Below are positions 3,338 to 40,937 of a stretch of DNA of 64,000 nucleotides, in pieces. The stretch is taken from positions 290,098,001 to 290,162,000 of the forward strand of contig OZ024743.1 in NCBI GenBank assembly GCA_964016885.1. Reading direction: 5' to 3'. Positions within the stretch are counted from its first letter, which is position 1, and every line of letters begins with the position of its first letter. Source of the DNA: Eledone cirrhosa (lineage: Eukaryota). The translations under genes were made by a program, and so were the position numbers. The notes below the pieces were generated by a model. That model did not search any database, was not told the DNA's origin, and saw nothing but the letters and a program-made list of their open reading frames with translations.

Positions 3338-3396
3338 AAAGTACCAGTAATACACTGGTTCATTGCTGGCCTTGTGCCTAAAATAGAAACAATTAT
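3338..3396 (+). mobile_element. 3' fragment of the tRNA-derived SINE inserted in the PLE ORF
   Basis: aaagtaccagtaatacactgg...gctggccttgtgcctaaaatagaaacaatt matches the SINE 3' end at 8145-8203; lies in the AAT-rich linker and splits the ORF. Confidence 0.75.
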
Positions 3397-4008
3397 TACT
3401 ATTGTTATTATCGCTAATTATATGTTGGTTTGAATTAAGAATTCTGCTATTAATTTTTGCAATATTTTGAGCCATATTCATGGTTGTTGAGTACGAAAGT
3501 TTAACTGTGTGTCTATTGAAGATAGAGTAATATTTATGTGATCTAGGGAAACATTCATCCAAGGCTTTGAAAAATATATGTGGTAAAGGCGTTTTAATAG
3601 CTAAAGATGCTGGCGGGGCATACCAAATAATAGTTCTAGTTCCAATTTTTTTCACCGATTTATTCTCCAAATTGTTATTTTTATTTATATTTATATTTTT
3701 ATTTTTACAGTCAGTTTTATTTATATTATTCCTAATATTATGAATATTTTGTTTATAATTACTATTATTATTTTCTACATAGTCAATATTATATTTATAT
3801 CCTTTTTTATGTAACGCTTCATTGTAATATCCAACTTTACTATTAAAAATGGATTTGTTAGCAGCTACTCTGGTTATACGTTGTTGAACACTATTGACTA
3901 TTGCATTTTTAACACATTTAGGATGATTAGAATAAAAACTAACATAATTTAGGTCATATATTCATTGAATAATCAATGAACCTTGTTTAACATTTGGTTA
4001 ATTATATA

Positions 4009-4048: not shown

Positions 4049-5870
4049 AAACAGAAATAACAACACAATCGGTACAGAATATGGAAGGAATATATTACGT
4101 TAACGCTTGAAATAGCAGGAAGAGGGTCTTAACGTTTCGGACGCTATTCTTTAATCAGAAGAAAGAATGAGAAATAAGGTAGATTGAAGGGACAGGGGTG
4201 GGTGGAATTGGAAAAATTGTCTTTAGATAAAAATAGCAGGTCTATTCATGTTGTCATTTCTTGGAAATTGATGATGCTGACATTAGGCGCATGGTTTATT
4301 TTTGTAGAAAAGTGGATGATGGAACCCGTCTACCTGATATGGGAAAAAACCGTTTTTTAAAAAGAGCTATACTTGTGCACGTGCGTATTCATGTGTGTGT
4401 GTGTGTGTGTGCGTGTATCTGTGTGTGTGTGTTATTATACATCCATACGAAGCTAAGAATAAATGTGTGTGTATATGTAAGTAAAAGAGTGTGTGTTTGC
4501 TAGTAAGTACGAAGCTATGAGTAAAAGTATGTTAAAAGTGGAGTGTACATATTTGGTCGGTCTGTATTAGTTGTAAGAGAATATGTTTCTGACCATAAGA
4601 GAGTTATAGAATCTAGGGGTGAATTTACAAGCGCGTGTGTGTTAATGGACGAGGTGTTAAATAAATTGGGGGAGGGGTGAGTTGAGTCCATGAGGGAAAT
4701 AGGACCCTACGCGGTAAATCAGACTCTGTTTAGGTCTGTTGCGGGAGGCATGTGTTTCGTGATGTAAAAGGACACCCAGGATTCAGACATGTAGGGTAAA
4801 ATGACCAGCAGAACGGAAATGACGGGTGACAGGAGTATCCAAACCGAGTCGTGTGTCCCTCAAATGCTCAGCAAAACGGTCCGCTATACGGTGTCCCATT
4901 TGTTCGATGTATAAAGACTCGCGAAGGGAACACAGCAGAGCATAGACAACGTGGGTTGATGTGCAGGTGAATGAGTGGAGGATACGGAATGACACGTTAT
5001 GGCCTGTGAGAATGGTGAGGGTGGAAATGAAGAGACAAGTGTTGCACTGGGGACAAGAACAAGGATGAGAGCTGGGTGGAGTCGTAGAAGAGAACGAGAA
5101 GGAAATGTGTTCCAGTAGGTCACGGAGGTTACGGGCGCACTTAAATGCGGTAATGGGTAGCTTTGGAAAAAAGTGAGAAGTGACGGTGTCAGAAGAGAAG
5201 TTGCGAAAGGAACGGAGGATATTTCGCCGGAGTGGTAGAGTAATGGCGTGGTAGGTGAGAGGGAACGGGAGGCGGGTGGTGAGAGGGCGCTGGTGAGGTG
5301 AGAGGGCTGTGGTACGGTCGGTTACACGGGCGCGGGTGAGAGCAGCTTGGATCAGGGTGGGGGATATCCACGCTGGATGAAGCGGGTAGCAGTGTGAAGG
5401 GAATGGGTTTCGAAATCGTCGTCCTGGCTACAGAGCCGGCGAAGACTGAGGAATTGGGAATAGGGTATGGAGTGTTTGGTGTGGGTTGGATGGAGGGAGG
5501 TGAAGTCGCCTAAGATTGGGGTTGGTTGGTTTATAGAGGATGGAAGTAGAGAGGCTGTGGTGAGAGTGATCGTTAGATAGAGAGATATCTAGAAAAGGCA
5601 CAGATGAATCGGAGACGGTGGCGCTGAAGGTGGGAGCAGGATGAAATGATTGGACAAAAGATAGTAATGAGTCGAGCAGTTCTCGTGATAGCGAGGTGGC
5701 GCCGATACAGTCGTCGATATAACGACCGTATAGCTCAGGAGTAGGTCCAGCGTACTGGGAGAAGATCTGGGCTTCGACGTAGCTAGCAAACAAGTTGGCA
5801 TAGTTTTGTGCCATTCTGGTTCCCATCGCTACCCCAGAGACCTGCTGATAGAATTCACCCGAATAGGAAA
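4045..5870 (-). mobile_element. Penelope-like retroelement remnant (RT + GIY-YIG, frameshifted)
   Basis: MGTRMAQNYANLF...YGRYIDDCIG...VPFLDI...YKPT (PLE RT); CTSTHVVYALLC...LYIEQMGHRIADRFAEHLRD (GIY-YIG); decayed HHR at 4127-4162 (CTGATTA...GAAAcgTT); (TA)n flanks. Confidence 0.9.
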
Positions 5871-10240: not shown

Positions 10241-11983
10241 TTTACTATATAATATTTCCTTTCGTTCTTACAGGGTCGAGAAAATGGAGTACCAGTAACG
10301 TACTGTGTCAACTTAATCGATGTTGCTCTACACCAAAATTGTTGGCCTCCTGCCTAAATCATTATCAACATATATCATATTCAATCTATAAACGTTATAT
10401 GAATCCTTAATTTTGTGCAGGTTCAATATTTTATCAAATAAATCCATAGAAAAAACTCATACAAATGCGCTCTTGCACGCATACATACGTAGGTATATAC
10501 ATAGGTATATATGTATATGTATGTATATATATATATAGATGTTTGTATGTATGTGTGTGTATGTGTGTGTGTGTATGAATGTCAGTTTTTGTATGTGCGT
10601 ATGTATTACTTTATAGTCGAATTTGTGTTATTTTCATGAAAAACGAATGGTTTAGAGGTCAATCTTGATAAAATGTCAAACCAGTTTCTAATATATCAAT
10701 AAGTAATAGGAAAAGAAACAGCGCATTCTTTTCAATGCAATTTTGTGAAAATAAATGCACAAAACGGTTATATAAATAAACAACAGAGCTTTCGAATCAC
10801 CTGCAATATTGAATTGCTGTAGTTTCAGAACTTAATTTAGTATTCAGATTTCTAATTTTCTTTTCAAAGAAGCAAGAAAATATCTTTAAATATTGACAAC
10901 CATCAATAACTCCATTTTCACTTTGCTGTTGTAAAAATGGTTCAGTCTTTCTTCTTTTGATTACCTTGACAAAAGATAAAATAAAAAGATCTGTAACCTA
11001 AAAAACAAGTAGATTATAGAATAATGGAGGAACTATCTTAAGCTTGATCAATCATTATTGAATTATTTCTAAGTGAAAAGCTAACCTATGTTTCTATTAT
11101 ATATTTCGTCTAAGAAATTAGTGATAAGTGATTGAAACCCTATAGAGAGAGTGATTATAACTCATGTAGCTTAAACTCACACAAAGACGCAGATAGATAG
11201 ATGATTACACATTAACACCAAACATACTCATACGTGTGTGTATTTATGTATGTATGTATGGATGAATGGATGGATGAAAGGGAGTATGTTTGCCTACATA
11301 TACATATATTTATGTATATGTTATTAGATATATATATGTGCGTATGCGCGCGCGTTCGTTTGCATGAGCGTCTATGTGTGTTTATGAGTTGTGTGAGTGT
11401 GTGAGAATATTAGATTTTGAAAAGTTTTGTACGTGTATTTATTATATATGTGTGTACGATGATGCTATTACAAAACTAAATTTTCAAGAAATAATATTTT
11501 AGTGAACGTCGGTAGATATATCTCCCCATTGAATGGAGAACATGTTAAACGAAATTGTTATCTGTATAACTTCATCTCTACAGTGACTGCTAATACAATA
11601 CAATATTTACATTTATATTATTATATTCATAGAGAGAGAGAGAAATAGAGAGGGGGCGAGTAAAACACCGACCCCGCAGAGAAGCGATTTCGATACAAGC
11701 CGAAACCACTTGTTGCTGCTGAAGTAATTTTACGTATCTATATACGCAATTTGCATCTCCTCATGCATTGAGCATCCAAATGTTAGCACTGTGACCGGTT
11801 TCAGCACTGCAGACTCTCTCTATATAATTATATAAGAGCATAGAGTGCTCAACTGGCATAGCACCTATGGAAGCATCTTAGCTACCATCAGACACACATA
11901 TATATATATATACATATATAGAAATGGCTTCTACAGGACTACTCACGATTGAACCGGGGATAAACTTATATATATATATATAT

Positions 11984-12473
11984 AAACGGAAACAATGAAA
12001 CGAAATTTCATTTCCCACTCTTAGTACGGCTGTTACTTAAATATAAGTATAAGTATGTACACGTACATACATATATGTATACAGACATACAGTAGTATGT
12101 ATATATATATATATACATACATGCACACATATATATATATGTACGTATGGATTCACCGAACATTTATTATAATGCTCGGTGTGTTTGTAAACAAACATCC
12201 CGTATTAAGCCGTAGTGTCCAGCAACCATTGTTGCTCGTTTGTTCAACACATACAAAGGAACGCTGTACTAGTTTCAAGCTTATTAGCTATCGTCAGCAA
12301 CGTATACCTTCCTGCCAGAGTGTTGAACGTCTGAAAGTATATACTTTCCTTATGCATATTAACGGCTGAGTAGCCCAATTTGCATATCGAGTGGGTTAAT
12401 CGGCGCCGAGTGCACCGAAAACGATAAACGGAAAAAATGAAACGAAATTTCATTTCCCACTCTTAGTACGGCT

Positions 12474-12477
<4 letters not shown>
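11984..12477 (-). mobile_element. Retrozyme-like element, family beta (~440-bp monomer + ~50-bp redundancy) in (TA)n
   Basis: Terminal direct repeat aaacggaaa.aatgaaacgaaatttcatttcccactcttagtacggctgtt; intact HHR; homologues at 39340-40890. Confidence 0.85.
12261..12303 (-). ncRNA. Intact minimal hammerhead ribozyme
   Basis: acgttg-CTGACGA-tagc taataa gctt-GAAA-ctag-TA-cagcgt. Confidence 0.85.
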
Positions 12478-12558
<81 letters not shown>

Positions 12559-13225
12559 TATATAGTAATAATATTAAATTTGAAGACTAAAATCCCAAGA
12601 GGGCTCGATAAGGATAAATATATATCAAATATATAAGAACCGTAGAGCAATATATATATATATATATATATATACACTCACAGAAAAAAGAGTCAGGATC
12701 CGACAGCTGTTCTCCGGCCGTTTCGACAGCTAGATCCGGGCGCTGAGTACACTGCTGCGTTATGCTCCACCTGGTAACTTACCATAACTTCTTTGTCATA
12801 TATACATACATATATGTATATCTAAGTAGAAGGGATATTTAATTTGTTGGAAATTCAACAAATATAAATATTTATAACAGATTCAGAGCACTCGACAGTT
12901 TTTGGAATAAATATTCAATGATATTAAATAAATGGAAACCATATTTATAAAACCATATTTATTCTATTATATATATTTCAAGAGTATATATATATAACAT
13001 TAAAAATGCGAGGAAATGATCAAGAAAAATATACCTACTTTTTCTTCAAAGTCCTGACAGCATTTTTCCCGATTGACTTTGATGCAACCATGCACTATAG
13101 AAGTGCAACATCGCTGTGAGGCTATTAAGGCTTATCAAGAGACCCCTCAGTTAGTGGAATGTTTCATAACAAGTGAATAATTCCCGAGAGACGGGGGAGA
13201 AATTAACACGCGATTGAATGGTTAA

Positions 13226-14759: not shown

Positions 14760-15065
14760 GTTGTCGGGTTGCAGTTAAATGCGTCCGTAGGCGCTATGCC
14801 GGTTGAGCACTGCATGCTCGCAGAGAGCAGAGTATAATATTATCAAGAACGAGGAATTAGTATTGCATCAAAACACAATTTATTAACACATTACGTATGT
14901 TTCTCCGTCGATCAGCTCGAGGCAGGATCTGTTATAGATCGAACCCTACTCTGCATTCGAAGGGTCTTCAGATCTGTAACAGATCCTACCTCGAGCTGAT
15001 CGACGGAGAAACATATGTAATATGTTAATCAATGTTGATTTGATGCAATATTGTTTCCTCGTTCT
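14760..15065 (-). mobile_element. Fold-back pLTR fragment (hairpin 14846-15065) with conserved tail
   Basis: ~95-bp inverted arms; GAAA-catacg-TA...AATAAA...atactctgct tail shared with 11835-11895 and 25993-26066. Confidence 0.65.
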
Positions 15066-15780
<715 letters not shown>

Positions 15781-15939
15781 TTTAGGTTTGTTGGTTCACC
15801 ACGGGATAGAACTGGTCATTCCGTAGTCAACCTTGATGTAATATTACGAGAGCACTCGGCGTAATGTGTAATAAACATAAAGTAAAATAAACCTTTAAAG
15901 AATTACACCAGTCCAGCCTCCTGTTATTTTATAATATAT

Positions 15940-16010
15940 CGACAATCGGCTTTCGTCAAATCGAACCAAGGAAACAATGTGTCCATTGGTCTTTCCAATT
16001 GCTAATACTA
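15940..16010 (+). mobile_element. Helitron-type 3' end (second family); also at 43370-43435 and 60245-60300 on the minus strand
   Basis: Consensus of three copies: hairpin gaccgaggaaac/gtttccatcggtc followed by tttccagttgCTAG. Confidence 0.5.
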
Positions 16011-16019
16011 TCTATAATA

Positions 16020-16960
<941 letters not shown>

Positions 16961-17406
16961 GTTGTGAGTATGTAAATATATTTTATTCTTTCCATCCTAC
17001 TAAAACACTCTGGCCACCTGTGGCTTGTATGTTAACTTGACCACTCACCCCAGTCTGTGCCATGATTCGGTCTTGTTAAATGTTTAATGTCTATTACCAA
17101 CCCACCTAAAAAATTTCCCTACTATATATCTGTTGAATTATTATTCTTGGGGTTTTTATTTATTTATTTTTTATTTATTTCTTTATTTATTTTATTTATT
17201 TATTCATTTATCTATTTATTTATTCATTTATTTATTTATTTACTTATTTATTTATTTCAAAAAAGCACTCTGGCTAATTGACCACTCCCCATAGAAAAAA
17301 CGGCCTGTGCCATGTAGTGGTCCTGTGTATCTAAATACCCCCCCCATCCACCACCCTCCCTTGCCACTACCTAAATGTATAAATACCAGAACTTAATATG
17401 ACACCC

Positions 17407-17457
17407 AGCTTCCTGAAGATTTCATCTGAATGAAACAGTACTAGTCCTGTAGAAGCT
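17407..17457 (+). ncRNA. Intact type I hammerhead, family gamma
   Basis: agcttc-CTGAAGA-t ttc atct gaa t-GAAA-cag tactagtc ctg-TA-gaagct; AATAAA and (TA)n follow. Confidence 0.8.
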
Positions 17458-17500
17458 CCTTCTATAAAATAAAAAAAAAAAATATATATATATATATATA

Positions 17501-20081
17501 TAGGAAGAAGTATGACCCCGACGGCAGAGCACAAGCCGTTTCGACGGATAATTCTCGTCTAAATAACAATTTTTAGCCTGGTAAATAAATAGCCAAACAT
17601 CTCAGGAAGATAGTCATTGACAAAAGGATTGGTCAAAAATTTGTTGTAAAGACATGATTCTATCACGGCATTTAGTGGAAGGTAGGGTAGCTGAACTTGC
17701 CGGTAGAACAAAGAGGGAGTGGGGGAAAACAGTCAAGCTTTGAAAGTGAAATCTATACAGCAGATTCTAAGGATAGTGTATAGAAGGTCGAAAAAAGTGT
17801 ACTGGAGAATAGGGTTGGTGAAAAAAGGTAAATCGAAAAGGAGTAAACAAAAAAGCCATTATAAAAATGAGGAAATAAATATATAAAAAAACAATTTTTG
17901 GCTACTACTCCATCCCCACAATCACCAAATCTCCCATTGATATGGCTCATCTATAGAAAAGTTTAATAGGTGGAGAAAAATGCTAAATACCCGATTGTAG
18001 TGAAAGAATTTTATAAAGCCATCTTTACAGTGGGTCTAACACCACTGCTATAGTTAGCAGTAATCAGCCAATGCTATCTTATAATGACAGGTTAATAAGT
18101 TGAGGACGAACATACTAAAAAACTAATACGAAATATTAATTCAGAATACTAATACATACATACTAATAAAAGAATAATAATGCAAAAATACCACTAAGAA
18201 TTTTAGAAATCACGGAAATGGAGCAGCAACCAGAAAGAAAGCAATTATCTGGGGCCTAACACGTCTGCTATGAAAAGGGTAATCGGCCAATTCTATCTTA
18301 AAATTAGGGTAGGGGGTGCTGAGGCTACAGAGGACCGATGGGCTGCATCGGAGTGGGCGCGAGGTGAAAAAAAAACGACAAGGAAGGAGATATGCGGTGG
18401 AAGGACAAGGCAGAGCTGGGGGGAAGAAGGAAATATAGAGGAAAAGATAATAAAAATTAAAAAGTTACGTCTACCTTTGTAGGCAAGGGTTACCCCTTAC
18501 AAAGTCGGCAAGTGGGGTGTTTCAGCCCTTGTCTACCCCCCCCCCCCCGGGTTATTATGGGGTTTCAGGGCGAAGTATGTCCTCCGCAATCTATGTTTGC
18601 ATGCAGTTACCAGTTCGTCTTCCTTGTTTAGGAGTTGGTCCTTCGAAAACAGCATTTGTAATGTTTCCTCCTAGCATAAGTTACACGGACGGCGTCTTCT
18701 CGTGTAAGAGTTAGCTCTGGACAGTAAGCTCCAAGTGAGATTGTAGGTTATATTATTATTTTTGAGGTCCCACATGTGGCCCGAAAGTGTAGTGGCGTGA
18801 CGCCGGGCCGGGTTTCGGAAAGTATGTCTGTCTAGATAGAGCCGGGTCTTGAAGTCACAAGAGGTTAATCCTATATAAGCTTTGTTGGAGGTGTCCGTCC
18901 TCACGTTGCACTGGTAGATCACATTACGATCTCGGCATCTGTTGTTGAGGGGGAAAAGGGGTCTATCAGCACAGTTACAACTCCTGGTCGACTCTCTACT
19001 GCTGTCTAGGTTATTTCTTCCATAGGGGTGGTGTTTTTTGTTGTTAGAGGAGACGATCTTTTGTGCAAAGTTAGGTGTGGTGCTGTAGGAGAGTTTGATG
19101 TTGATTTTGTTGATTATGTTGTGGTAGCGGTCTTGTAGTGGGAAGTGTTTTTCGATGAGCCTACAGAAGATTTTCCCTATAGGTGTTGTCACCTCGGCAT
19201 TGTGAGGGTGGATTGAACCATGTTACGGTGTGTGAGCGGCGGTGTCGTGCTAGTTCCGCTAATGGAAGCTGGATAGTACGATATTTCCTCCCGGAAGCCA
19301 CTCCGCTTGAGGGCCTGGTTGTAATAAGGCGCACATTCATCGAATATTTGCTCATTAGTGGTATTTTTGCATTAGTATTCTTGTATTAGTATTTATGTAT
19401 TAGCATTCTGAACTAAACTACTAACTATAGCAGTGGTGTTAGACCCCCTGTAAAGATGGCTTTATAAAATTATTTCACTACAATCCCGTATTTAGCATTT
19501 TCCCCCACCTATTAAACTGTTCTATAGCTTAGCAATACCAATGAGAGATTTGGTGATTGTGGAGATGGAGTAGTAACCAGAAATTATTTTTTTATATATT
19601 TATTTCCTCATTTTTATAATGGCTTTTCTGCTTACTCGCTTTCGATTTACCTAATTTTTCAAGTCTCTCTCCTCCAGTACACTTCTTTCGACCTTCTATA
19701 CACTATCCTTAGAATCTGCTGTATAGATTTCACTTTCAACGCTTGGTTGGGTTTCCCCCACTCGCTCTTTGTTCTACCGGCAACTTCAGCTACCCCTACC
19801 TTCCACCAAATTCCATGATAGAATCATCTGTCTTTACAACAAATTTTTGACCAATCCTTTTGTCAATTACTATCTTCCCGTATATGGAATTACCCCCTGA
19901 GAAGTTCGGCTATTTATTTACCAGGCTAAAAATTCTTATTTAGTCCAGAATTAGCCGTCGAAAAGGCTTGAGCTCTGCCCTCAGGGTCATACTTGTTCCT
20001 ATTAATCACTATACTACTCCTCTAAGTATTGAGTACTTTGGTGCGTTATGGTCCATCTGGATCCTTAACACATTTCCCTCG

Positions 20082-20083
<2 letters not shown>
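17501..20083 (-). mobile_element. Penelope-like element remnant flanked by ~650-bp inverted pLTRs
   Basis: VTWFNPP...INKINIKLSYSTTPN...VIYQC...AYIGLTSCDFKTRL (GIY-YIG); inverted repeats ~17501-18195 / ~19355-20001, each ending in an HHR-like motif (GAAA-cggc/gccg-TC; core CTGAGA). Confidence 0.9.
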
Positions 20084-20117
<34 letters not shown>

Positions 20118-20710
20118 TTATAAGAATGTGAATGAAATATATTCATGCACACATAAGTGTGCACTGATATATATCAAAACTTAAAACTGTGTGTATGAAT
20201 ATATTTCATTCACTTTCTTATAATGATTAAGACTTGACTTTATTCTCTGAATTCTATCTTGAGCTGCTTTTAGAGACAAGACATTTCCATATATATCTTT
20301 CTATACAGATCACGTTATATAGGAAAAAAAGTGTTTGAAATGTGCACCTGGTAAATATAATATAAAACGCATCTTTATAAGCTGTACAAAAATTGATGTT
20401 AACAATAGATGTTTAACAAAGCAGGCAATTTAACGAAAAAAAAAACAATTTAACCTAATAATAAATGTTTTGATATTCCAATACGGAGAAAGCAGCATTT
20501 GCTAAACTTCAATTTTTAACATCACTTTTTGTATATATAAAGTTCCTTTATATATATATATACTAGGTACTTTTATCATTTTCCACACACACACACATAT
20601 ATATATATATATGTATATATATATATCCATACATATGTGTATATATCCATACATGTGTATATATATATTTGTATATATATATTTGTATATATATATCTAT
20701 ATATATATAT

Positions 20711-21134
20711 ATGCAAACACCGGGGAGCTAACGCCCTCTGGTGTCCAGCAGAAGCAAGGGAGACAACCGTCTATGCATTTCAGGCTTAACTGGCCTTCGT
20801 CAGGACGGTCCCTCCCACCGCTTGCGACTACTGGACTAGAAGACAGGCGAGAATATATACTTTTCTCGTCTGTGTAAATGAGGTGATTAATCTCATTTGT
20901 ATATGAAGCTGCACAATTTGGCTCAACTTATAATAAAAAAGAAATAGGATTTCGCTTCTAGCATAGCTTCATACAATATGTATAAATATCTCGTATTTCC
21001 AAGGAAACACGGTTTTAGGAAGCCGAAGCTATGCAAACACCGGGGGGTTGACGCTCTCTGGTGATGTCCAGCAGAAGGAAGGGGGACAACCGTCTATTCA
21101 TTTCAGGCTTAACTGGCCTTCGTCAAGACGGTCC

Positions 21135-21137
<3 letters not shown>
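20711..21137 (-). mobile_element. Retrozyme-like element, family epsilon: ~320-bp monomer bounded by two hammerheads, in (TA)n
   Basis: ~105-bp terminal direct repeat containing the HHR (20766-20809 and 21089-21132); no ORF. Confidence 0.85.
20766..20809 (-). ncRNA. Intact minimal hammerhead ribozyme
   Basis: accgtc-CTGACGA-aggc/gcct-GAAA-tgca-TA-gacggt; all stems perfect. Confidence 0.9.
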
Positions 21138-21166
<29 letters not shown>

Positions 21167-22759
21167 ATGTATGTGTGTGTATGTGTGTATGTGTGTGTGT
21201 CTTTAATAGGCTGTCTAGAATTGATCAATAATAATTTGACGTTTGTAAAATATGTTCACATTTCAATAAATCTAATTAGTGTTTTCATATCACTATAAAT
21301 TTACAATTCCGTCATTGAGAAAGACAGTCATTAACATGTGTGCAAGGAACACTTCTCATAAGTCTACGTAGGTATAACAGAGAATGTGGGGGAAATAACT
21401 CGCTCTCAGTTACACCCACACTATACATGCACATGCACATATAGACACTCATAATCACATACATATATGATAACAGATCATATGTAAATTATATGTAAAT
21501 TACTACGTCAATTTCACAATAATACTAAGGATGAATATATATATCTATACATCAAGTACATATTTTTTTCTGGTTGATTGTATGATATACACGTCTTTTG
21601 ATGGTGGTCCAATTATCTAAGAAAATCGATTAAAGATGGTTATCATTCTTTTCAATTTACAAGGAAATTCGTCTTTTCTGGAATGTTTACATATATTTAT
21701 ACGCTTGGTTCAGTCCCGCTTACACATTCAATATTTTTTATGCAATGTGGCGTCTAACAATTTAAATTTTTTTAATGAAATATATCAATCAAGATAGATA
21801 GTGTCGGAGGTTTTCAACAGAAAAGTAATAAAATGTCAACCATTAGGAATTGTATACAAAAAAATAATCATATCAAGATAATCATAACATATATCTTTGA
21901 AAATGTGTCGCTGATATAAAGGCATTAATAACAAATTTAAAGGAAACTGAGTTTGTAGGGGGCACGGAACTGTCGGTATGCGATTTCCACTGAGATAAAA
22001 CATGATTTCTTTCTTATATACATCTCATCGATTTCTTTATTAAATGCATATAGAATGGAGAGTGCACCAGCTATTTTTAAAGTCAAAGTAGGTAAATTAG
22101 TTGACATATATAAACAATTACTTCATTAAAATTTCTAAATCCACATTTTGCATTCTCTTTGATTGTGCAAATAGCTGATGTTGCAAGTATACGATCAATC
22201 TGTCCATACAACGTGATTCGAAGCTAACGCGTTGTTACTGCTAATTGTGTTAGCGTTGAAAAATTGGAAAAAAAAATATCAAAAACACAACACAGCGGTC
22301 CAACACGGCTTTTTAAACATTTTCACTTGGATAGGTGTATCGTACCGCACACCCTAAAATTTAGTCTTATACAGGCAAAGGTTTGACTGCTCGCCTCTAT
22401 TATCTGAAGGCTTTATGGAATAAAACCATTCGTAATATAGTCATGATCTACTGGACGCAACTATGACAGCCTGAGTCATTCCTTTGGGTCCAAGCGAATA
22501 TGACAAATCAACAATTAACGCCATGTTCAGAAACATTCCTTGATTTCTAGTTACCTTGAAATCGATTTGATATTTGTACTAATTCTGATTTTCCCGAGCG
22601 GTGGATACACTGCTGATATATAAATATACACACTCATACACACATATACACACAACACAACACAACACAACACACACACACACACACACACGCACACACA
22701 CACATACACAAATATATATATATATCTATATATATATATGTACACACGCACATTTACTT

Positions 22760-23100
22760 AAGGCTTCTATCGAAGATTAATAATAATGTTCGATTCGCTT
22801 CTAAACAAACGGCCCAATTTGAAAATATGCCATGCCGGTGACCGATCGTCACCTGTTTGTTCAACTCTGGCTTCGAGGAACAATCAGACATATTTCTGGG
22901 TCATTACAATTCATCAGTACTACATGCCTCTGCCAGTCTGCTGAACAGTTGAAAATATGTAGTATTTTCTTAAGTACAAATCGGCTGAGTAGCCTCATTT
23001 GCATAGCAAGCGAGTTACGATTGAGCTTGCCGCATATTAAAAATAAAATTAGAATTTTATTTCTTGCCCTAGCACAGCTGATACAGAAATGTACATATAA

Positions 23101-23168
<68 letters not shown>

Positions 23169-23670
23169 GCACACACATATATACATATACATATGTACGT
23201 ATGGGTTTATATAGGACATTAATAATTGTTTCTACTATTGGCACAAGGCCAGCAAATACCCAGTACATTACTGGTACTTTATTTTATCGACCCCGTAAGG
23301 ATGAAAGGCAAAGTTAACCTCAGCGGGATTTGAACTGAGTCCGTAAAGGGACGTAACTGTGCTGCAAAGCATGGCCTCCGACCCTCTACCGATACTGCCA
23401 ATTCAATGATGTTCGATTCGTTTGTAAACAAACGGCTTGATTTGAAGCTGTACCATGCCGTGAAAATACGATACATTTTCAAATATTCAACAGACTGGCA
23501 GAAGTATACTGTCCTGATGAACGGTAATGACCCAGGAAGAAGTTGATTGTTCTTTAAAGCCAGTGTTGAACAAACGGTGACGATCGCTCACCAGCACAGC
23601 TTCAAATCGGGCCGTTTGCTTACAAACGAATCGGACATTAGCATTAATGTTCGATATAACCCATATGTAC
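22760..23670. mobile_element. Diverged family-beta relatives (22760-23090 minus; 23405-23670 partly inverted)
   Basis: Shared blocks taaacaaac, tttgttcaac, ctgccag, ggctgagtagcc..atttgcat; decayed CTGATGA...GAAA. Confidence 0.6.
23221..23402 (-). mobile_element. tRNA-derived SINE, full-length copy
   Basis: Reverse complement of 8021-8203, including the A and B boxes. Confidence 0.85.
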
Positions 23671-23715
23671 ATACGTATATGCGTCTGTATGTATATATAT
23701 ATATATATATATATA

Positions 23716-24113
23716 TTCAGGTTTGAGGTTCACCACTTTATAGAGCTGGTCTATTCCGTATGGTCAATCGTAATGCAATAATATAGAGAGTACTCAACGT
23801 AAAGCAGTTCAACCGTCTTTGTTTTTGTAGTTGGTGGTGCTATTACGGAGTTAAATATTATAATGAAATGACAGGAGGCTGGATTTGTGTAAATCCTTGA
23901 AAGGTTTATTATTCTATGATCATTTCAATGACCGGGTTCCGTATGAATCCGGTGATATTATCAGGTATTCGAAATATAATACGTGAATGTAATAGATAAA
24001 ATCCATGGGGCTGAAAATCGAGGACCCGAGGGCGACCGCTATTCTGTTCCTTCAACCTCAGTCGGTCGCCCTGGAGTGGATTTACACAAATCCAGCCTCC
24101 TGTCATTTCATTA

Positions 24114-24120
<7 letters not shown>
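23716..24120 (-). mobile_element. pLTR-type element with decayed HHR and inverted 5' segment
   Basis: CTGATAA-accgg../..ccggt-GAAA-tgatca-TA then AATAAA (23905-23970); inverted repeat 23854-23897/24078-24120; tail homologous to 15780-15860. Confidence 0.6.
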
Positions 24121-24151
<31 letters not shown>

Positions 24152-24604
24152 TGCTCTTCAAACCTGTATTTATGTATGTATACATATGCGAACGGAATAG
24201 CATCTCATGTCCCATAGTCGGCATATCGTAAACGTTACCATATACAATATTATTAACTTCTGTCTCATGATTCCGTGGTTCTCTTACGTAATATTTGCCT
24301 AACAGTTCTGAAATATACATAAAAGACGGTATTTAATAAACACATGCATAGGAATTTAGAACTGCCTCTTGATGTTTACATGAATACATGTAATGTGGCC
24401 AATACCGATCCATGTGATACAAGTATTTCCATAGTTTGCTACAACTGAAGTGGAATGAATTAAACTATTTCATAGTTTGCCGGGTGCGGTGAAAACATTC
24501 AAAACTGATAACAATCTAACAATCTAACTATCTAACACACACACACACACATATATATATAAATATTTATATATATATGTATAATATTATATATATATAT
24601 AATA

Positions 24605-24643
<39 letters not shown>

Positions 24644-24759
24644 TATATGATGTTATATATATACATATATATATACTGTATATATATATATATCATATAT
24701 ATATATATATATAAAATTATATATATAATTATATATATATATATATGTAATTATATATA

Positions 24760-24817
<58 letters not shown>

Positions 24818-25635
24818 TATATATATATACATCAGTTTGCAGTCAGCCACTGAGGTGATTGAGGGCACCTGAACCAGTGTTAAAAGTTCGAGATGAACTC
24901 AAAAGAGAGAAATGTATCGAATTTATTATGGGAAAAGAAAGAAATGAAGTAAGCGAAACCAGAGGAATTAACCTAGAATTTTCTAATTTACGTGTTACGT
25001 AACGGAATATCAAGATATACTTTATATTTGCTATTTTTAATATATTTCGTTCCATATTCTGTCTGGTCTGTTGCAAATCACTGATTGATTCATTGATCGA
25101 AAGAAGATGAAAAGAAATCGATGAATTTCATCATGTTATCTAAAATGAATTGCACAATAATATACTCATTTAATGTTTAAAAAGAAACTAAAAAATCTGC
25201 TTCTATGACTTCAAAGATTTATATATATATATTATCTTAATTTTTAAAATATTTAATTTTTATTGGTTTAAATCATTTAAATATCTAATTCATATATGAT
25301 AGCATGCACTCTACTTTCTACACATGTTCATCTGTCTCTTCCTCTCAGTCAGTTATCCATAAATAGTTACATGCATAGTTACATATATACGTATATGTAT
25401 TTCACACACACAATTATACACACATATATAAACTCACACACTCACTCGAATGTGTGGGCACGCACGAAGATACCGCAAAATAGCTTAGAGAATAGCGTGA
25501 AAACCGTTAGAAAACAGATAATGACTTTGCCATGGGCCTTTGGAAATTTATTTTTACACTTTTTATGTTCTTCGCCCTATTTTATAAGATAATTTACAGT
25601 ATCTCCGCGCAAGAGCATATCTTTTTTACCTTAAC

Positions 25636-25713
<78 letters not shown>

Positions 25714-26094
25714 GACGCACAGACATGCGCGCGCACACAAACACACACAAATATATATATATATATATACGGAGATAGAGAGAGAGAGGGGGAAAGAAAT
25801 AGAGATATATAGGTATATATATGAGTGAGAGAATATGCTCCGAAATCATTAGACGTGTCCGTCGAACCTGCGGGTCCAGAATCAGACAGATCCACACAAT
25901 GATCGCGTTTCAAGCAGTCCGCCGGTGATACAATTGTAACACAGAATAAATAGAGTTCAGATGCATCACTGATTTTTCGTTTTCTATTCTATCATACTCT
26001 GCTCTGTAAGAGCAAAGTGAGCAAAACCGCCATACCGCCTATGGAAGCATCATAGCTACCATCAGACACACACACACACATATATATATATGTA

Positions 26095-26809
26095 TATGAA
26101 TAAAGTGGTCCTTCATCAGTGATCTTCCAACCATCATCGGTATTTCTTCGCTTTAAAGACCATATGCCTTCGGTTGGTGCGAACAGCAGCTAAAGAAAGT
26201 CGTTGGGACACGTAAATAAAGGGAACAGCGAGAGTGTAAACAAACAAAGATGGTGAAGCAACGAAAAGTGAGGAAGAACGAGTCAAGTCCCAAATTTCCA
26301 TGAATATAAGTTCGGTGAAATCGTGAACGACAGAGAATAAAGACCATCAAACCTGGTTGAAATGTGAGCAATGAAGGAATTCCGCACAGGTCAAACGGGA
26401 GGAAGAAGGAGTCTAGTCCGTGAATTCGGTGAACATAAGTTCTGTGAAATCGTAGACGAGAGTGAGAAAAAAGGCGAACCAGCCTGACCAAGCGTGCGAA
26501 AGTAAAGAATTACGCACAGGTCAAACGGGAAGAAGGAGGAGGAGGAGATGTAGTAACAGATAGTGAGTGAGTGAAGGGTGAGGAAGAGGCTAACAGAGAG
26601 AGTGACTGTTAGAGAGAGTAAAGATACAGAGAAAGAGGAAGCAGTAAGAACGAAATAGACGGGTCATAGCGGGGGAAAAATATGTGTAAATATTAGAATA
26701 AACGTGCTGCGTGGTTGCAGTTGGGTTACATATGAATAAAGTGGTCCTTCATCAGTGATCTTCCAACCCTCATCGGTATCACTTCGCTTTAAAGACCATA
26801 TACCTCCGG

Positions 26810-26810
<1 letters not shown>
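26095..26810 (-). mobile_element. Family delta element: 636-bp monomer + ~75-bp redundancy, two permuted hammerheads
   Basis: Direct repeat 26095-26170 / 26731-26808; homology to 14121-14710 in a shifted (circularly permuted) register; (TA)n flanks. Confidence 0.85.
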
Positions 26811-26864
<54 letters not shown>

Positions 26865-27884
26865 TATATATAGAGAGAGAGAGAGATTAAACAAGACAAG
26901 AGAGCGGTAGAAACACGTCTTAACTGGGCTACCACTGGCAGAAAAAGAGACAGTTTACTTTACTTTTCTGCCGGAAACTAAAGAAGCCTAAGGCTAGAAG
27001 ACAGCAGAAGGTGTAGAAAAAACGCTGGTAGTATTGTGGATGACGGGTGAGAGATTGATGTTGGCCTCTACGTAGCATGACCTATGAGAAATTTTGATAC
27101 ACGACTTGTTAGTTCAAAATCCTCAGTTGTTAACGAGCCCGATAAATCGGTTGCAGTTGGTGTGTTTGGTGTTTCGGATGACGTCCACAATGTCACAGGT
27201 AAAGAATGCAGTTCCTCGCGTATCGGAAGAACGATTCGGATGCTGCACATGGCGGTGAGAGTTTGTGTTAGAAAAATCAACAAGTCAATGGCTACAGACA
27301 TTACAATGTGACTAGAATAGAGATGACGAAATGGAATGGGGACAATATGAGAAGGAAACACAATATTATCAACGAGAAAATACATCGGAAAATAAATGCT
27401 CATAACATATCGGCTACTATAATGATTTCACGCATTATATAGAAACTACGTAATGTGACAGCTAGGGATTAACAACATATGTCTTCCCCATTGGCTGGTT
27501 ATATGGTCTGGTTTGATAGGCCGTGTCTGACAGTATGAACGATCCGCGTATGATTTCACACATTTAGAGGGTGAATATGATTTTTGATGTGAATTTTTGG
27601 TTAAAATTTGACGTTTTATTTAGGATATTTGGTGAAGGTGTGTGGACAAGTTGGAGAATTAACAGTGTTATTTACGGAAATATATATTTATATATATGAA
27701 TGTATGTATAGTATATTTGCCAATATACCGTAAGTTTAATTAAAAACATGTAGAAGACTATTCGCAATCAGTTTTAAAGTAGTGGCTATGTCACTTACTT
27801 ATTTTCGGCAAAGGTAGGGAGAGCGGCTGATGTCTGTTTCTCGCTGTTTGGCGTTTATAAAAACCACACGGTCCCATGCCTTAA

Positions 27885-30050: not shown

Positions 30051-30617
30051 TTATATATATGAATATATACATTTTTTAGTGTTTGCGTTAGTGTATCTTT
30101 GTGTGTGTTTGTTTCCAAGCTATATGCTGCCGTGTGTTTTTGTGAGTGTGTAATTGAATGGAAGTTACTAAGTAGTTTGAATAAGTGACTAAGTGATTAA
30201 GAATATAGTCATTAATTAGCTAGGCCCCTATCGATTATATTATGGAAAATGCTGTCACCGTATTCAGTTCCTGTGATATATATTTTTGAAATTGCGATGT
30301 TTCATAATGTTATGATATTTTCTATGTTTTTCCTAATTGGCAAGCTTCGGCCATGACTTCTCCTTCCAGGAACTGACTCTGGACAAATCTAGCAGTAGAT
30401 CATGGATGGAAGCTACATCACAGTCCAAGGATAATATAAAAGCCAATGCGATGATCCCAGTGTCGTAACAACGCATTATCTAACTGAATCGTAACAACGC
30501 ATTATCTAACTGAATCGTAGAATAGTAATCAAATAAGCAACCTTACCTTCTTGATCCTAGCACACTGAAAACTAGGCCACCCTATTAGAACCCTTTTCAA
30601 AATTTACTGACAATCGT

Positions 30618-33600
30618 GTGTTAAAATCGGTTCGGTTTTATGCAAAGTTCGGTTTTATGCAAAGGCTAAAAACTTTATGGCACTCCAAACACCCAGAATT
30701 AGACTTTTCTCCAAAGCATCTAAATGAACAGGCAAAACGTATCATTAGATGTAAATTGATACATCTAACGGAATCGAGTGATACTACAAATACAGCCCTT
30801 GTAGACAACCACCCCACCTCCACTGACAGACAAAGAGAATGGCCAGCTAAATCTAACAGTGAACAGCTCACCAACAATTTTGCTGAAATCCATCCCACTT
30901 CCACTGAAGAACAGCGAGAAAGGTCAGCTGACTCTAGTAGTAATTGTCACCACATCAACAACGAGGCTGCAATTCATGACTCTACTGAACAAACAGAGCA
31001 CCAAAAACTTGTGGGCACCCTACAAGTGATATGGAACGATATGTTTCAAGAGATTCACAGCCTTAATGTGAGTGACAGACCATACAACACTAGAGTCAGT
31101 AAAGAACCCACTAAATTGGAATTGGAAGCGGTGAACGAAATAGCTGGCAATTATCTGAAGGCTATACGATCTAAAGGTGTAGAAACGACATTTGAAACGC
31201 TCAATGTTTTGTTATATGTTTCAGCTGTCACATTGCTATCATATAACACACATCTAAAACCACGCAATCAAGATACAAACAGAAAGCCTGAACCAGCGTG
31301 GATGCGAAATTTAAAAACCAAAATTTTGTCCCTGAGACGAAGTATCTCACACATCGCAGTCGTTATGAAATGCAACATAGAGAGAAACTTCACACGACAC
31401 CAGGAAGACCTAAAGAAAAAGTTAGAGAGACGATTTGGAGATACGAAATTTAAAACTTTGAACTCCAAATTACACCAGTTGAAACAACAACTCACAGCTA
31501 CAACAGAAAGACTAAAATATAAGTCAACAGCCCATAAACGACAAGTGCTAAATAGATTGTTTGCCAGAGATCCTAAATCAGTTTATCGCAGCTTCAGTGG
31601 CAAAAGCTCAATCCCTGTAAACGACACCCCTTCAAAAGAACAGGTTGAGAACTACTGGAGATCTGTATGGGAAACGGATGACGGATTCAACAGACAAGCT
31701 AATTGGCTAAAACAACTGGAACAGGACTACTGCCAACATGTCCAGACAAAACAATATGACATAGATGGGTCAATACTGGAAACAGCTCTACAGAAAATGT
31801 CGAATAGGAAATCGCCAGGCCCAGACCTCATTACAGGATACTGGTTGAAGAATTTCACTTTCTATCGGCAAGATCTCATACGGCTGTTTACAGAAACCAT
31901 TAAGGGCACACAAGAACTGCCCAGAGGGTTATCAACTGCCACTACTCTCCTCATTCCCCAAAATAGCCAAACCACCCTTGCTAAAAATTACCGCCCAATT
32001 GCCTGCCAAAACATCATGTATAAATTATATACTGGGTGCCTTAACCTGTTCTTACAGGATCACTGTGCTACCAACAACATCATAACACATGAGCAAGCTG
32101 GTGGAAAGAGGGAGGTGTGGGGTTGCATAGATCACCTACTAACTAACAAAATGATTCAGGAAAAAACAACAAAGAATCGCAGAAACATGACTGTCGTGTG
32201 GCTGGACTATCAAAAAGCATTTGATAGTGTACCTCATGGGTGGATTATTAAGGCTTTACAGTTAGCTAAAGTCCCACAACCATTAGTAGCTGCTGTTGAA
32301 CGCCTGACCAAGAACTGGTACACCAATTTGATCCTTAGAGGTGAGAAGGAGCAGGTTAAGACTGATAGGATACATTACCAGAAGGGCATCTTTCAGGGTG
32401 ATAGCTTGTCAGTACTACTCTTCGTTCTCTCACTGAATCCATTATCTTACCTACTCAGGAAACAAGGTGGACAAAGAAGTGGGCCCAGAAGTATCTCCCA
32501 TCTTTTCTTTGTTGATGACCTGAAGTTGTATGGGCCAAATATCAATGACATCAAGAAACAATTGGACCTCATTACACAATTTTCAACCGACATCAAAATG
32601 AAATTTGGTGAGTCCAAGTGTGCATATTTGGCAGTAAAACGTGGAAGAGCTGTGCCCTCCTCTAGAAATCTAGATATGAACGGCCTGACAATACAACCTC
32701 TGCAGTCAGGTGACAACTACAGATATCTTGGACAGGATGAGAATGTCAGATATGATGGACCCATAAATAAGGAGAGAACCAGAACTGAATACCTCAGAAG
32801 AGTAAAAAAAATATGGTCATCAGAACTGTCAGCATACAACAAATACATTGCCCACAATACCTATGCTGTGCCAATTCTAACGCCAACATTTGGCCTACTG
32901 AACTGGTCATTGCAAGAACTAAGTGAGATGGATGTTAGAACTCGAAAACTTCTCAGTGTTACTGGGAATTTTAACATCAATGGTAATGTGGATAGGCTAT
33001 ACTTCTCACGCAAGGAAGGTGGCCGGGGTCTAAAATCAATATTAACAACATATGAGACCCGGATAGTAACACTGAAGCAACACCTTCAACAGAGGAAAAA
33101 GGTTGGCGACCATCTTGCTCAGGTTTATGAGCATGAAAAAAGAAATATCATTAGAATAGCGACTGATCTGGAGGAGAGATATGGAATAAAGCCTGATATA
33201 AATCTCTCACCCAGAGAAATCGGAAGATCCTATTCAATGTTCAAACAAGAAAAAAAAATTGACCAATTTACAGAGAAAGTTGTGCATGGATACTTGAGGC
33301 GTAAAACACAGACCATAGAGGGGATAAACCACTCAAAAAGCCTGGCATGGAGTTCCGACAAGTTTATGACATCACACCTTGAGGGATATCTCTATGCAAT
33401 ACAGGAACAAGAACTCCCTACCAAATATCTGCTGCACAAAAGAGGAGGGCCAGCAGCTGACAATAAATGTAGGCTATGTAAAACAAAGATCGAGGATGTA
33501 AGCCACATTGTTGCCAGCTGCGAAAGAATGTCATCTCGCTACTACCTCCCCATGAGACACGATGGGATAGCTAGAACTATCTATAACGCACTTCGGAAAA

Positions 33601-34040
33601 CAAAATTAACAACAAACGAGGAAGAATATATTGAGACAGATGGCACTAAGGAATACTGGTGGAACCTGAAAATAAAAACTGCCACCAAATTAAAGCACAA
33701 CCGGCCTGATATTGTAGTTTGGGATCACACATTGAAAACGTGTTCTGTTGTGGAGATCAGCTGCCCACTTGATGTAAACGTTGTCAGAAAAATACAGGAG
33801 AAGGAGGACATCTACGGACCATTGATGAGGAGCTTACAAATCCAGTATCCAAGATACACCTTTAGCTTCATACCCATCATTATTGGTGCTACGGGTTATA
33901 TACCAACCCGCTTGGACCAAAGTATGACCGAACTTGGATTTGCGGACAAAAAGCGCAGCTCCCTAATTCATAGTCTACAAATGGCTGCGATAGCTGACAC
34001 CTTCAAAATATGCAAAACATTCTTGCGATTCAAGGGTTGA
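30618..34040 (+). CDS. R4/Dong-clade non-LTR retrotransposon polyprotein (RT, CCHC finger, PD-(D/E)xK restriction-like endonuclease)
   Basis: KSPGPD, NYRPIAC, WLDYQKAFDSVPH, GIFQGDSLS, HLFFVDDLKLY, YRYLG, GGRGL; CRLC..HIVASC, RHD, RPDIVVW..VEISCP; open for 1140 aa; start codon doubtful (probably 5'-truncated). Confidence 0.93.
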   Translation: MLKSVRFYAKFGFMQRLKTLWHSKHPELDFSPKHLNEQAKRIIRCKLIHLTESSDTTNTALVDNHPTSTDRQREWPAKSNSEQLTNNFAEIHPTSTEEQRERSADSSSNCHHINNEAAIHDSTEQTEHQKLVGTLQVIWNDMFQEIHSLNVSDRPYNTRVSKEPTKLELEAVNEIAGNYLKAIRSKGVETTFETLNVLLYVSAVTLLSYNTHLKPRNQDTNRKPEPAWMRNLKTKILSLRRSISHIAVVMKCNIERNFTRHQEDLKKKLERRFGDTKFKTLNSKLHQLKQQLTATTERLKYKSTAHKRQVLNRLFARDPKSVYRSFSGKSSIPVNDTPSKEQVENYWRSVWETDDGFNRQANWLKQLEQDYCQHVQTKQYDIDGSILETALQKMSNRKSPGPDLITGYWLKNFTFYRQDLIRLFTETIKGTQELPRGLSTATTLLIPQNSQTTLAKNYRPIACQNIMYKLYTGCLNLFLQDHCATNNIITHEQAGGKREVWGCIDHLLTNKMIQEKTTKNRRNMTVVWLDYQKAFDSVPHGWIIKALQLAKVPQPLVAAVERLTKNWYTNLILRGEKEQVKTDRIHYQKGIFQGDSLSVLLFVLSLNPLSYLLRKQGGQRSGPRSISHLFFVDDLKLYGPNINDIKKQLDLITQFSTDIKMKFGESKCAYLAVKRGRAVPSSRNLDMNGLTIQPLQSGDNYRYLGQDENVRYDGPINKERTRTEYLRRVKKIWSSELSAYNKYIAHNTYAVPILTPTFGLLNWSLQELSEMDVRTRKLLSVTGNFNINGNVDRLYFSRKEGGRGLKSILTTYETRIVTLKQHLQQRKKVGDHLAQVYEHEKRNIIRIATDLEERYGIKPDINLSPREIGRSYSMFKQEKKIDQFTEKVVHGYLRRKTQTIEGINHSKSLAWSSDKFMTSHLEGYLYAIQEQELPTKYLLHKRGGPAADNKCRLCKTKIEDVSHIVASCERMSSRYYLPMRHDGIARTIYNALRKTKLTTNEEEYIETDGTKEYWWNLKIKTATKLKHNRPDIVVWDHTLKTCSVVEISCPLDVNVVRKIQEKEDIYGPLMRSLQIQYPRYTFSFIPIIIGATGYIPTRLDQSMTELGFADKKRSSLIHSLQMAAIADTFKICKTFLRFKG

Positions 34041-34171: not shown

Positions 34172-35408
34172 CCTCGAAGCGAAGAAACCCGTTTCTCGAG
34201 CAAGTTTGTCTGCATGAAACAGATGAGATCATGAGAGTTGGGAAGGAACTCCTTGAGAGATATTCCTTGTGTGATAATCAAAATCTCACACCCAGGAATG
34301 TCGCTCAGCAGTATCGCAGTGAATCCATGGATGAAAAACTGCATGCCTATCAGCAAAAAATCATGCATTGATATGTTGACAGGAGGCTCCAGAGTGAGAG
34401 TAATATAGATAAGGAAAGTAGTCTATCTTGGACCAACAACCGCTATATTGGCTCCCACTTTTAAGGATATGCTTTTGCAATCCAGGAACAGGTGATTAGC
34501 ACGAAATACCTGATTCACAAAAGAGATAGGGATGCAGGCAAAACACCTAGATGTGATAACAAGTGCAGACTCTGCAGAACTAACATCGAGGATATCACCC
34601 ATGTCATCAGCAGCTGTCCAAAGATGTCATCGCGGTACTATCTACCTATGAGGCATGATGCAGTGGCCAAAACACTGTACAATGCAGTTCGTAAAAAAAG
34701 ATAACACCGATAATAAACATATTAAAAGATACAGCAATATGGAAGATATCCATGTACATAATATGAAAGAGTACAGGTGGAATGTTCCTGTAAAAAAAAC
34801 AATAAAATGCAGGCATAACAGACCAGATATTATGATATGGGACAGGGAGAATAAAGCATGCACAGTAGTGGAAATCAGCTGCCCAGCAGATGCCAATATA
34901 ATATCAAAGATTAGCGAAAAGGAGAACATTTTTGCAGAACTGATGAGAAATCTGCAGATTCTCCACCCTGATTACACTTTCAGATTTATGCCTGTGATTA
35001 TTGGGGCACTGGGATAAGTTAGTAACTGCCTCAATACAAATCTTGAGAAGCTAGGCTTCACAGGAACAGAAAGAACACAACTAGTTAGGAAATTACAAGT
35101 ACAATCCATTAATGGAAAAATATGTAAGACATTCCAAAATTTTGCATCTAATAACTGCATATACACATATACAGATGCAAAGCATATACACATGCACACA
35201 TACAACTCGAAACATACACATCCACACATAAAATAACATCCATATCTACACATGCATGCATACATACATATCTACCTAGTTGATGTGTAAATTCCAATGA
35301 GAAAGTCTAGTGTCTATGTTAGAAACCGACTCTCTCTCTATTGGTAAAACTTTGTGAAATTATAAAACCAGAAGAACATACATACATAATACATACATGC
35401 ATACATAT
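34172..35408 (+). pseudogene. Second, 5'-truncated and decayed R4/Dong-type element in tandem
   Basis: CRLCRTNIEDITHVISSCPKMSSRYYLPMRHD, HNRPDIMIWD..VVEISCP with stops and frameshift; ends in CATA repeats at ~35377-35406. Confidence 0.9.
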
Positions 35409-36938: not shown

Positions 36939-37576
<638 letters not shown>

Positions 37577-39074: not shown

Positions 39075-39214
<140 letters not shown>

Positions 39215-39270
39215 TGTGATGTATTAAATTATATATATATGTATATACGTATATATATATATATGTATAC

Positions 39271-39318
<48 letters not shown>

Positions 39319-39339
39319 GCGTAAATTATATATATATGT

Positions 39340-39881: not shown

Positions 39882-39952
<71 letters not shown>

Positions 39953-40886: not shown

Positions 40887-40890
<4 letters not shown>
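39340..40890. mobile_element. Cluster of three family-beta elements (39340-39843 +, ~39960-40280 -, 40281-40890 +)
   Basis: Homology to 11984-12477; HHRs at 39531-39573 (GAAA mutated to AAAA), 40177-40219 (-) and 40511-40553 (+, intact); the + copies are terminally redundant. Confidence 0.85.
40511..40553 (+). ncRNA. Intact minimal hammerhead ribozyme
   Basis: acgatg-CTGACGA-tagc/gctt-GAAA-ctag-TA-catcgt; stem I covaries relative to 12261-12303. Confidence 0.88.

Positions 40891-40937
<47 letters not shown>

Follow-up and report, generated by a model that had tools for sequence, protein, structure and literature searches.

The 64,000-nucleotide stretch of Eledone cirrhosa DNA analysed here (referred to as the window) carries a short repeat element that is probably an aged, inactive insertion, 1.3 units long, of an abundant non-LTR retrozyme family. 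That this repeat carries a ribozyme, is non-coding and exists in many copies is almost certain. Our best reading of its origin, to which we give a probability of about two in three, is drawn by analogy with studied systems: a non-LTR retrozyme would have been copied for 1.3 rounds from a circular RNA template by a Penelope-like enzyme acting in trans.

Anatomy of the Element

The features of the element and of its junctions are collected in Table 1. The 5′ end lies near 21137, and the 3′ end at 20713, or at 20710 when the ATA common with the target is counted. The initial annotation had described two hammerhead ribozymes (HHRs) 323 bp apart, a terminal repeat of ~105 bp around them, the absence of an ORF, and (TA)n on both sides, and it left the strand unstated. 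These observations were borne out. The two cut sites are 323 nt apart and both HHRs lie on the minus strand; the terminal repeat aligns over 107 columns with an E value of 5e-36; (TA)n abuts both element ends. ORFs starting with ATG in the circularised unit reach at most 28 aa on the ribozyme strand and 34 aa on its complement. Further copies of the repeat were looked for within the 64-kb window and none was found, which leaves a single 1.3-unit copy. Inspection by eye revealed no TGG start of a primer-binding site after the 5′ repeat. Features of a tRNA-derived SINE were also absent from the element, as it contains neither a tRNA gene nor a B box at one mismatch to the consensus.

Table 1. 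Position of the element, its parts and the adjoining microsatellites within the window.
Feature	Position	Strand	Remarks
Whole element	20710..21137	(-)	~1.3 units of a 323-nt non-coding repeat
107-bp repeat, 5′ copy	21030..21136	(-)	89.7% identity to the 3′ copy
107-bp repeat, 3′ copy	20710..20813	(-)	from alignment with the 5′ copy
Cut-to-cut monomer	20772..21094	(-)	323 nt, 43.7% G+C (141 G+C)
Intact canonical type I hammerhead (3′ copy)	20766..20809	(-)	C3 at 20803; from descriptor, folding and family variation
Decayed type I hammerhead (5′ copy)	21089..21132	(-)	C3U at 21126; palindrome broken at 21098
Long helix I extension closing the ribozyme domain	20743..20836	(-)	from folding
~60 nt 3′ of the cut	20713..20771	(-)	ends right after a hairpin; similar in geometry to Penelope-like ends
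(CA)n/(TA)n microsatellite at 3′ junction	20584..20712	.	ATA common to element and target
(TA)n then (TG)n microsatellite at 5′ junction	21136..21200	.	adjoins the element

The features described for non-LTR retrozymes in PMC7229834 were found in this repeat: a type I HHR in each unit, a unit size in the range of about 150-450 bp, a G+C content below 50%, many copies joined head to tail, no coding region, no primer-binding site, and a highly self-paired monomer. The element had been called a textbook retrozyme. This description holds for the architecture and for the large family with head-to-tail joints, but both ends lie away from the cut sites. Because the unit is part of such a family, the retrozyme architecture is now backed more strongly than it was by the initial annotation.

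The Hammerhead Ribozymes

The 3′ HHR has stem I ACCGUC/GACGGU, with a helix I of 6–7 bp, the core CUGACGA, and GAAA after helix II. Stem II is AGGC/GCCU (20796-20793/20785-20782) with the 7-nt loop CAGUUAA, and position 10.1-11.1 is A-U instead of the usual G-C. The palindrome AUGCAU is located at 20778-20773 and the cut follows AUA, at 20772/20771. C3, the core, both stems and the palindrome are all intact, in agreement with the earlier description of this copy as perfect with a palindromic stem III. In the 5′ HHR, with the cut position 21095/21094, the C3U substitution and the loop change noticed earlier were found again, the latter being UGCA to UGAA within the palindrome.

Helices I and II of both HHRs were predicted in cis, with pair probabilities of at least 0.92 except for one end pair. 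The ribozyme domain of 97 nt folded at −45.3 kcal/mol (z −4.4), and 0 of 200 shuffles were equally stable; the 56-nt HHR motif alone folded no better than shuffles (z −1.2). A strict HHR descriptor matched once in the window and gave no match in 100 block-wise Markov resamplings. The hammerhead families of Rfam did not match the element even at E 10. A wider Rfam scan of 15000-27000 gave 88 matches, all of them microsatellite-driven or below threshold, and two chance matches fell on the element. As Rfam is silent, the HHR call rests on the descriptor, on folding and on family variation. Core-like patterns in public contigs were also inspected (in metagenomes, no locus with a tight pattern and one with a looser pattern; in viral contigs, 16 loci), and all were rejected as chance because 0 of 17 had both stems or likeness to the element.

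The initial annotation had termed these HHRs "minimal". According to PMC4209133, canonical metazoan HHRs have a helix I of 6 bp, a helix II of 4 bp, and a helix III of 1-2 bp with a palindromic loop, and min-HHRs have a helix II of 7-8 bp, a helix I of 4-5 bp, and an extra unpaired base between positions 9 and 10.1. Here, helix II has 4 bp, helix I has 6 bp, or 7 at most, helix III has 1-2 bp with a palindrome, and the extra base is missing. The motif fits the canonical definition of the animal type, so the label "minimal" was wrong.

Cleavage as a dimer through the palindromic stem III had been taken as established for such HHRs. It is indeed reported for similar axolotl HHRs. At the present locus, cleavage of this kind in cis is unlikely, since only four of the six palindrome positions of the two HHRs can pair (+0.1 kcal/mol versus −4.7 kcal/mol for two intact ones) and the 5′ core carries C3U. 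Judged from the sequence of its 5′ HHR, with C3U and a broken palindrome, the locus probably cannot release a monomer. The same two lesions leave it with fewer than the two complete ribozymes that define an "active" retrozyme in 10.64898/2026.07.22.740005. In another ribozyme, C3G and G8C abolish cleavage (PMC11167929), and natural variants of the core reportedly cleave more slowly (PMC7151607; PMC3088659). Our literature search found no direct test of C3U, and we infer its effect here. In the intact HHR, a U lies seven bases past the cut and loop 2 ends in an A. A contact between such bases is known from a tetraloop ribozyme (PMC9217987), and by analogy the intact HHR may use it.

Fold of the Monomer and Its Opposite Strand

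The monomer 20772-21094 was folded as a circle in both polarities. The ribozyme strand gave a branched structure of −87.0 kcal/mol with 63% of the nucleotides paired and 7 G-U pairs (z −3.7 versus 150 shuffles). The opposite (plus) strand was stabler, at −105.9 kcal/mol with 12 G-U pairs (z −6.3). A-C mismatches are present in several ribozyme-strand hairpins, and private decay makes up part of the strand difference. The high-share letters of the 23 variants listed were also examined pair by pair: three turned a weak pair into a Watson-Crick pair, four weakened a predicted pair, and one depended on the helix chosen. As this result is mixed, no covariation is claimed outside the ribozyme.

The Family in Public Sequencing Runs

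One unit (20711-21033) was used as a query against four of eight listed runs, X1, X4, X5 and X6, none of them recorded as RNA, at a likeness of at least 80%, a cut-off that favours conserved reads. X6 consists of raw DNA reads from a separate study under the same species label and is independent; X1 may be the source of the window itself. In X1, the unit was matched by 2,876 of 17,142,217 contigs, 298 of them at 99% or more and 817, 1,113 and 648 in the lower bands. In X5, 34 of 762,587 contigs matched, and in X6, 1,412 of 12,467,656 reads, only two of which reached at least 99%. The unit was covered along its whole length in X1 and X6. The summed contig depth of X1 inside the unit, ~40,000-205,000, is unsuitable as a copy number; we infer hundreds to thousands of copies. 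X4, which bears a different organism label, was considered as evidence of a second host and rejected, as 2 of 8,254,286 contigs are too few for such a claim.

Among the 15 of 22 joints listed, head-to-tail joints that close the ~320-nt unit were found in three of the four runs (X1, X5 and X6). The joint 21030 to 20711 was present in 6 contigs of X1 and, with 8 different starts, in 50 reads of X6. The linker letters differ between related joints, which indicates that the joints come from more than this locus. This evidence concerns joints between units and not arrays of two or more full units.

The window differs at 14 positions from the letters carried by more than 70% of the X1 depth, which corresponds to ~4% divergence. 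The 28 constrained ribozyme positions were free of variants in all 40 variant rows listed (of 91; P 0.02). Four of the listed rows fall inside the ribozyme, at N7, in loop 2, and at the two bases of one helix II pair. A consensus of 26 contigs with loose ends (agreement 0.61) keeps the core and has GAAC/GUUC as helix II, where three of the four pairs are changed on both sides and the usual G-C stands at the base. Its letters suggest a sister subfamily with a compensatory helix II. Since the core is kept while helix II changes in compensated pairs, cleavage appears to be under selection in the family. In X5, four contigs with loose ends at 20742, 20743 and 20793 retain part of the ribozyme region and then run into 158-255 letters of unlike sequence; these contigs may represent sister families, flanking DNA or a parental element. 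Among the 18 loose ends listed of 303, no common break into coding sequence was observed.

Ends and Age of the Insertion

The 5′ end had been described as starting right at the ribozyme. It does lie at the ribozyme edge, though 43 nt upstream of the cut and not at the cut. The 3′ end lies ~60 nt beyond the other cut and shares ATA with (TA)n. Such ends show that a linear monomer cut at both ends is impossible as the template; a circle or an uncleaved multimer is possible. Other copies enter (TA)n at 20933-20939, as seen in 13 contigs of X1 and in 93 reads of X6, the latter probably all of a single locus. The position of the 3′ end is therefore variable.

The two repeats differ by eight substitutions and one 3-nt indel. 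If they had been identical at insertion, nine substitutions would be expected from decay. The agreement of eight with nine fits a circular template and is also compatible with a multimer. The 3-nt indel is also variable in the family and sits in a slippage-prone TGG/TGA run.

Penelope-like Elements and Other Repeats of the Window

The window holds Penelope-like remnants at 2755-3417, 4783-5427, 18671-19222 and 41330-41773. The remnant 2755-3417 has a CxCX5C linker and 18671-19222 the same linker minus the last cysteine; compared by eye, the translated sequences of both resemble Hydra-clade proteins. The other two contain a CX4CXXC linker, which by eye is of the Neptune type, and 41330-41773 also has a GIY-YIG match. 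Pfam recognised 2 of the 7 ORFs. As described in PMC8557442, the Hydra clade inserts into (TA)n, carries canonical ribozymes and has a family in Octopus bimaculoides, and Neptune elements show a microsatellite bias.

No similarity was detected between the element and the flanks of the four remnants. None of six element words occurred in the published consensus files of Hydra, Naiad and Chlamys, and in the window no 107-bp repeat was present beside an RT-GIY-YIG ORF. As no sequence link to these Penelope-like elements was found, the partner enzyme is guessed from the target and the geometry. The ribozyme of the Octopus element Hydra-1, which differs from that of the retrozyme (PMC8557442), speaks against the proposed partner.

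The remnant 18671-19222 (minus strand) lies between inverted repeats of ~590 bp (17500-18061 and 19417-20002, 87%). Within these repeats lies a hammerhead-like motif, decayed and unrelated to the retrozyme, whose helix II is long and whose triplet is GUC or CUC. A tie between the retrozyme and this neighbouring remnant, 17500-20002, was ruled out because its repeats are unrelated. A homologue search with it gave one match among 16 candidates. On the minus strand at 2620-2770, downstream of the Hydra-like remnant 2755-3961, we found GAAATGCATA, identical to the ten bases that make up helix III and the cut site of the retrozyme; it has no clear upstream core and may be due to chance. A degenerate hammerhead-like motif on the plus strand at 17355-17470 (CUGAAGA, GAAAC, the palindrome AGUACU, GUC) folded no better than shuffles (z 0.2).

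Other repeats were also noted. An open reverse transcriptase ORF of 1,154 aa (RVT_1, zf-RVT) occupies 30576-34040 on the plus strand, and a second fragment lies at 34652-35017. The nearest named relative of the long ORF comes from Argonauta hians (64% identical); together with a repeat known from octopus genomes, this points to an octopod host, though not to a particular species. Judged by eye, the ORF seems to belong to a non-LTR element that ends in a restriction-like endonuclease. Large palindromes or fold-back repeats were seen at 36939-37576 (97% over 638 bp), 39479-40279, 20114-20227 and elsewhere, and one repeat family is common to 11967-12674, 22714-23716 and 39143-40939. The plus-strand segment 62096-62434 looks like a true coding exon and not like repeat debris.

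Proposed Mechanism

Our preferred reading follows the circle and Penelope-like model of PMC7229834 and PMC7761336. As inferred from studied relatives, intact tandem copies would be transcribed. The AUGCAU palindromes of two neighbouring ribozymes would pair to form a common helix III, and cleavage after AUA would free a monomer of ~320-325 nt to be closed into a circle by a host ligase. A Penelope-like reverse transcriptase-endonuclease, most probably one from the Hydra or Neptune clade, would then act in trans and nick (TA)n. Copying would begin inside the RNA, at a short AUA match ~60 nt beyond the cut junction, proceed once round, pass the junction again and stop 43 nt later, leaving two repeats of ~105 bp. 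Later neutral decay of ~4% per copy would have damaged the 5′ ribozyme. The unit size, low G+C content, self-pairing and ribozyme type, which match those described in PMC7229834, support this reading. As to the cleavage step, only one of nine predicted Xenopus retrozyme dimers is reported to cleave in vitro (10.64898/2026.07.22.740005). The stabler fold of the opposite strand, the silence of Rfam and the failure to find a partner by sequence also weigh against this reading.

A broader proposal is that the dispersed copies are footprints of rolling-circle, target-primed copying of an RNA circle by a (TA)n-targeting Penelope-like enzyme, with variable AU-rich starts and always more than one unit. 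By analogy this is conceivable, though we consider it doubtful. If true, thousands of copies in one genome would reveal both the circle template, by repeats identical at birth, and the partner enzyme. The circle would then be a self-paired RNA, possibly structured in both polarities, in cephalopods, a group noted for heavy A-to-I editing.

Alternative Explanations

The strongest competitor, which we hold to be unlikely but to deserve weight, is that the family moves as an uncleaved linear multimer. The Penelope-like enzyme would start ~60 nt past the ribozyme and truncate the 5′ side, the ribozyme would be inherited from a parental terminal repeat, and circles would be absent or a by-product. 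Precedent comes from an autonomous Poseidon element, which uses unprocessed RNA and in vitro starts reverse transcription inside the RNA downstream of the cut; its own ribozyme is dispensable in vitro, and ribozyme mutants insert normally (PMC11167929). It follows that the ends seen here are obtainable from a linear multimer as well. Hydra-1_Obim likewise ends ~35 nt beyond its ribozyme cut (counted by eye), and 5′-truncated partial tandems are typical of Penelope-like elements (PMC8557442). The 3-nt indel varies in the family, as if the repeats came from two different units, but its slippage-prone run offers another source, and the substitutions require no difference at insertion. The kept core and the compensated helix II, which point to selected cleavage, speak against the linear multimer.

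An origin from an autonomous Penelope-like element is improbable. The locus would then be a solo or partially tandem pseudo-LTR, left behind after 5′ truncation had removed the coding part. It shares with such elements a ribozyme near the 3′ end, the (TA)n target and the partial tandem (PMC4209133; PMC8557442), and three X5 contigs run into unlike sequence at 20742-20743 (among the 18 of 303 loose ends listed). Against such an origin, many reads show the unit joined to itself at ~320 nt, the loose ends listed have no common coding-sequence break, and the element has no ORF. In addition, the remnant closest by (18671-19222) is bounded by terminal repeats unrelated to those of the element, and the ribozyme differs from the min-HHRs that PMC4209133 describes in most animal pseudo-LTRs.

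More improbable still is a spread at the DNA level as a minisatellite, by unequal crossing-over or slippage in microsatellites, with the locus as a local partial duplication. Unequal crossing-over of retrozyme units is discussed in 10.64898/2026.07.22.740005, and no target-site duplication is readable within (TA)n. This origin is at odds with the single 1.3-unit copy in 64 kb, the sharp (TA)n junctions, the 3-nt match at the 3′ junction, and the different place at which other copies end in (TA)n. A chance likeness to a ribozyme, for which the silent Rfam and the z of −1.2 of the 56-nt motif could be quoted, has a negligible probability given the lack of strict matches in 100 resampled windows, the 0 of 17 chance core matches with stems, and the compensatory helix II of the relatives.

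Significance

The element looks like a decayed copy of a new, abundant family within a known class. Animal retrozymes are known from corals, mussels and salamanders, and the class has already been tested in a mollusc (PMC7229834), so the element itself is unsurprising. Searches of openly accessible papers turned up no described cephalopod retrozyme family. For the giant squid genome, a bare count of hammerhead loci is given (235, PMC6962438), and the octopus mention in PMC10886601 is a reference on SINEs. As presented in PMC7229834 and PMC7761336, the enzyme that moves animal retrozymes, and whether the circle serves as a template, are left open. A high-copy dispersed family with readable (TA)n ends provides material for testing both the enzyme and the template.

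Comparison with Known Systems

The closest resemblance by description is to the retrozymes of axolotl (Rtz_331, HHR_Amex1), mussel and coral, which have units of 170-400 nt, a type I HHR per unit, a G+C content below 50%, self-paired RNA, and no ORF (PMC7229834). Unlike them, the element here consists of 1.3 units in a microsatellite, with no array and with a decayed 5′ ribozyme. Its HHR shares with HHR_Amex1 a one-pair helix III and a palindromic tetraloop; HHR_Amex1 is weak as a monomer and efficient only as a dimer. Most invertebrate retrozyme HHRs are described as cleaving well as monomers, whereas this one has a weak, amphibian-like helix III (PMC7229834).

The unit is also close to the averages of 313-342 bp given for Penelope-derived non-LTR retrozymes of insects, amphibians and coral in 10.64898/2026.07.22.740005. 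These occur as dispersed monomer-type copies with Penelope-like elements alongside, as here. Molluscs are absent from that survey, and in the window no parental terminal repeat was found. Hydra-clade elements, including Hydra-1_Obim of Octopus bimaculoides, share the (TA)n target, a canonical type I HHR near the 3′ end, and a cephalopod host; Hydra-1_Obim differs in being autonomous, ~2.5 kb long with an ORF, in its helix III of 3-4 pairs, and in having no words in common with the element (PMC8557442).

The minimal HHRs of pseudo-LTRs resemble ours in type I topology, in palindromic positions around helix III and in a presumed dimer activity, but their long helix II, short helix I and extra base after position 9 are all missing here (PMC4209133). 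Plant LTR retrozymes likewise carry two ribozymes in direct repeats that flank a non-coding centre. They have a type III HHR, LTRs of ~350 bp, a primer-binding site, a polypurine tract and 4-bp duplications (PMC7761336), whereas the element of E. cirrhosa has a type I HHR and repeats of 107 bp.
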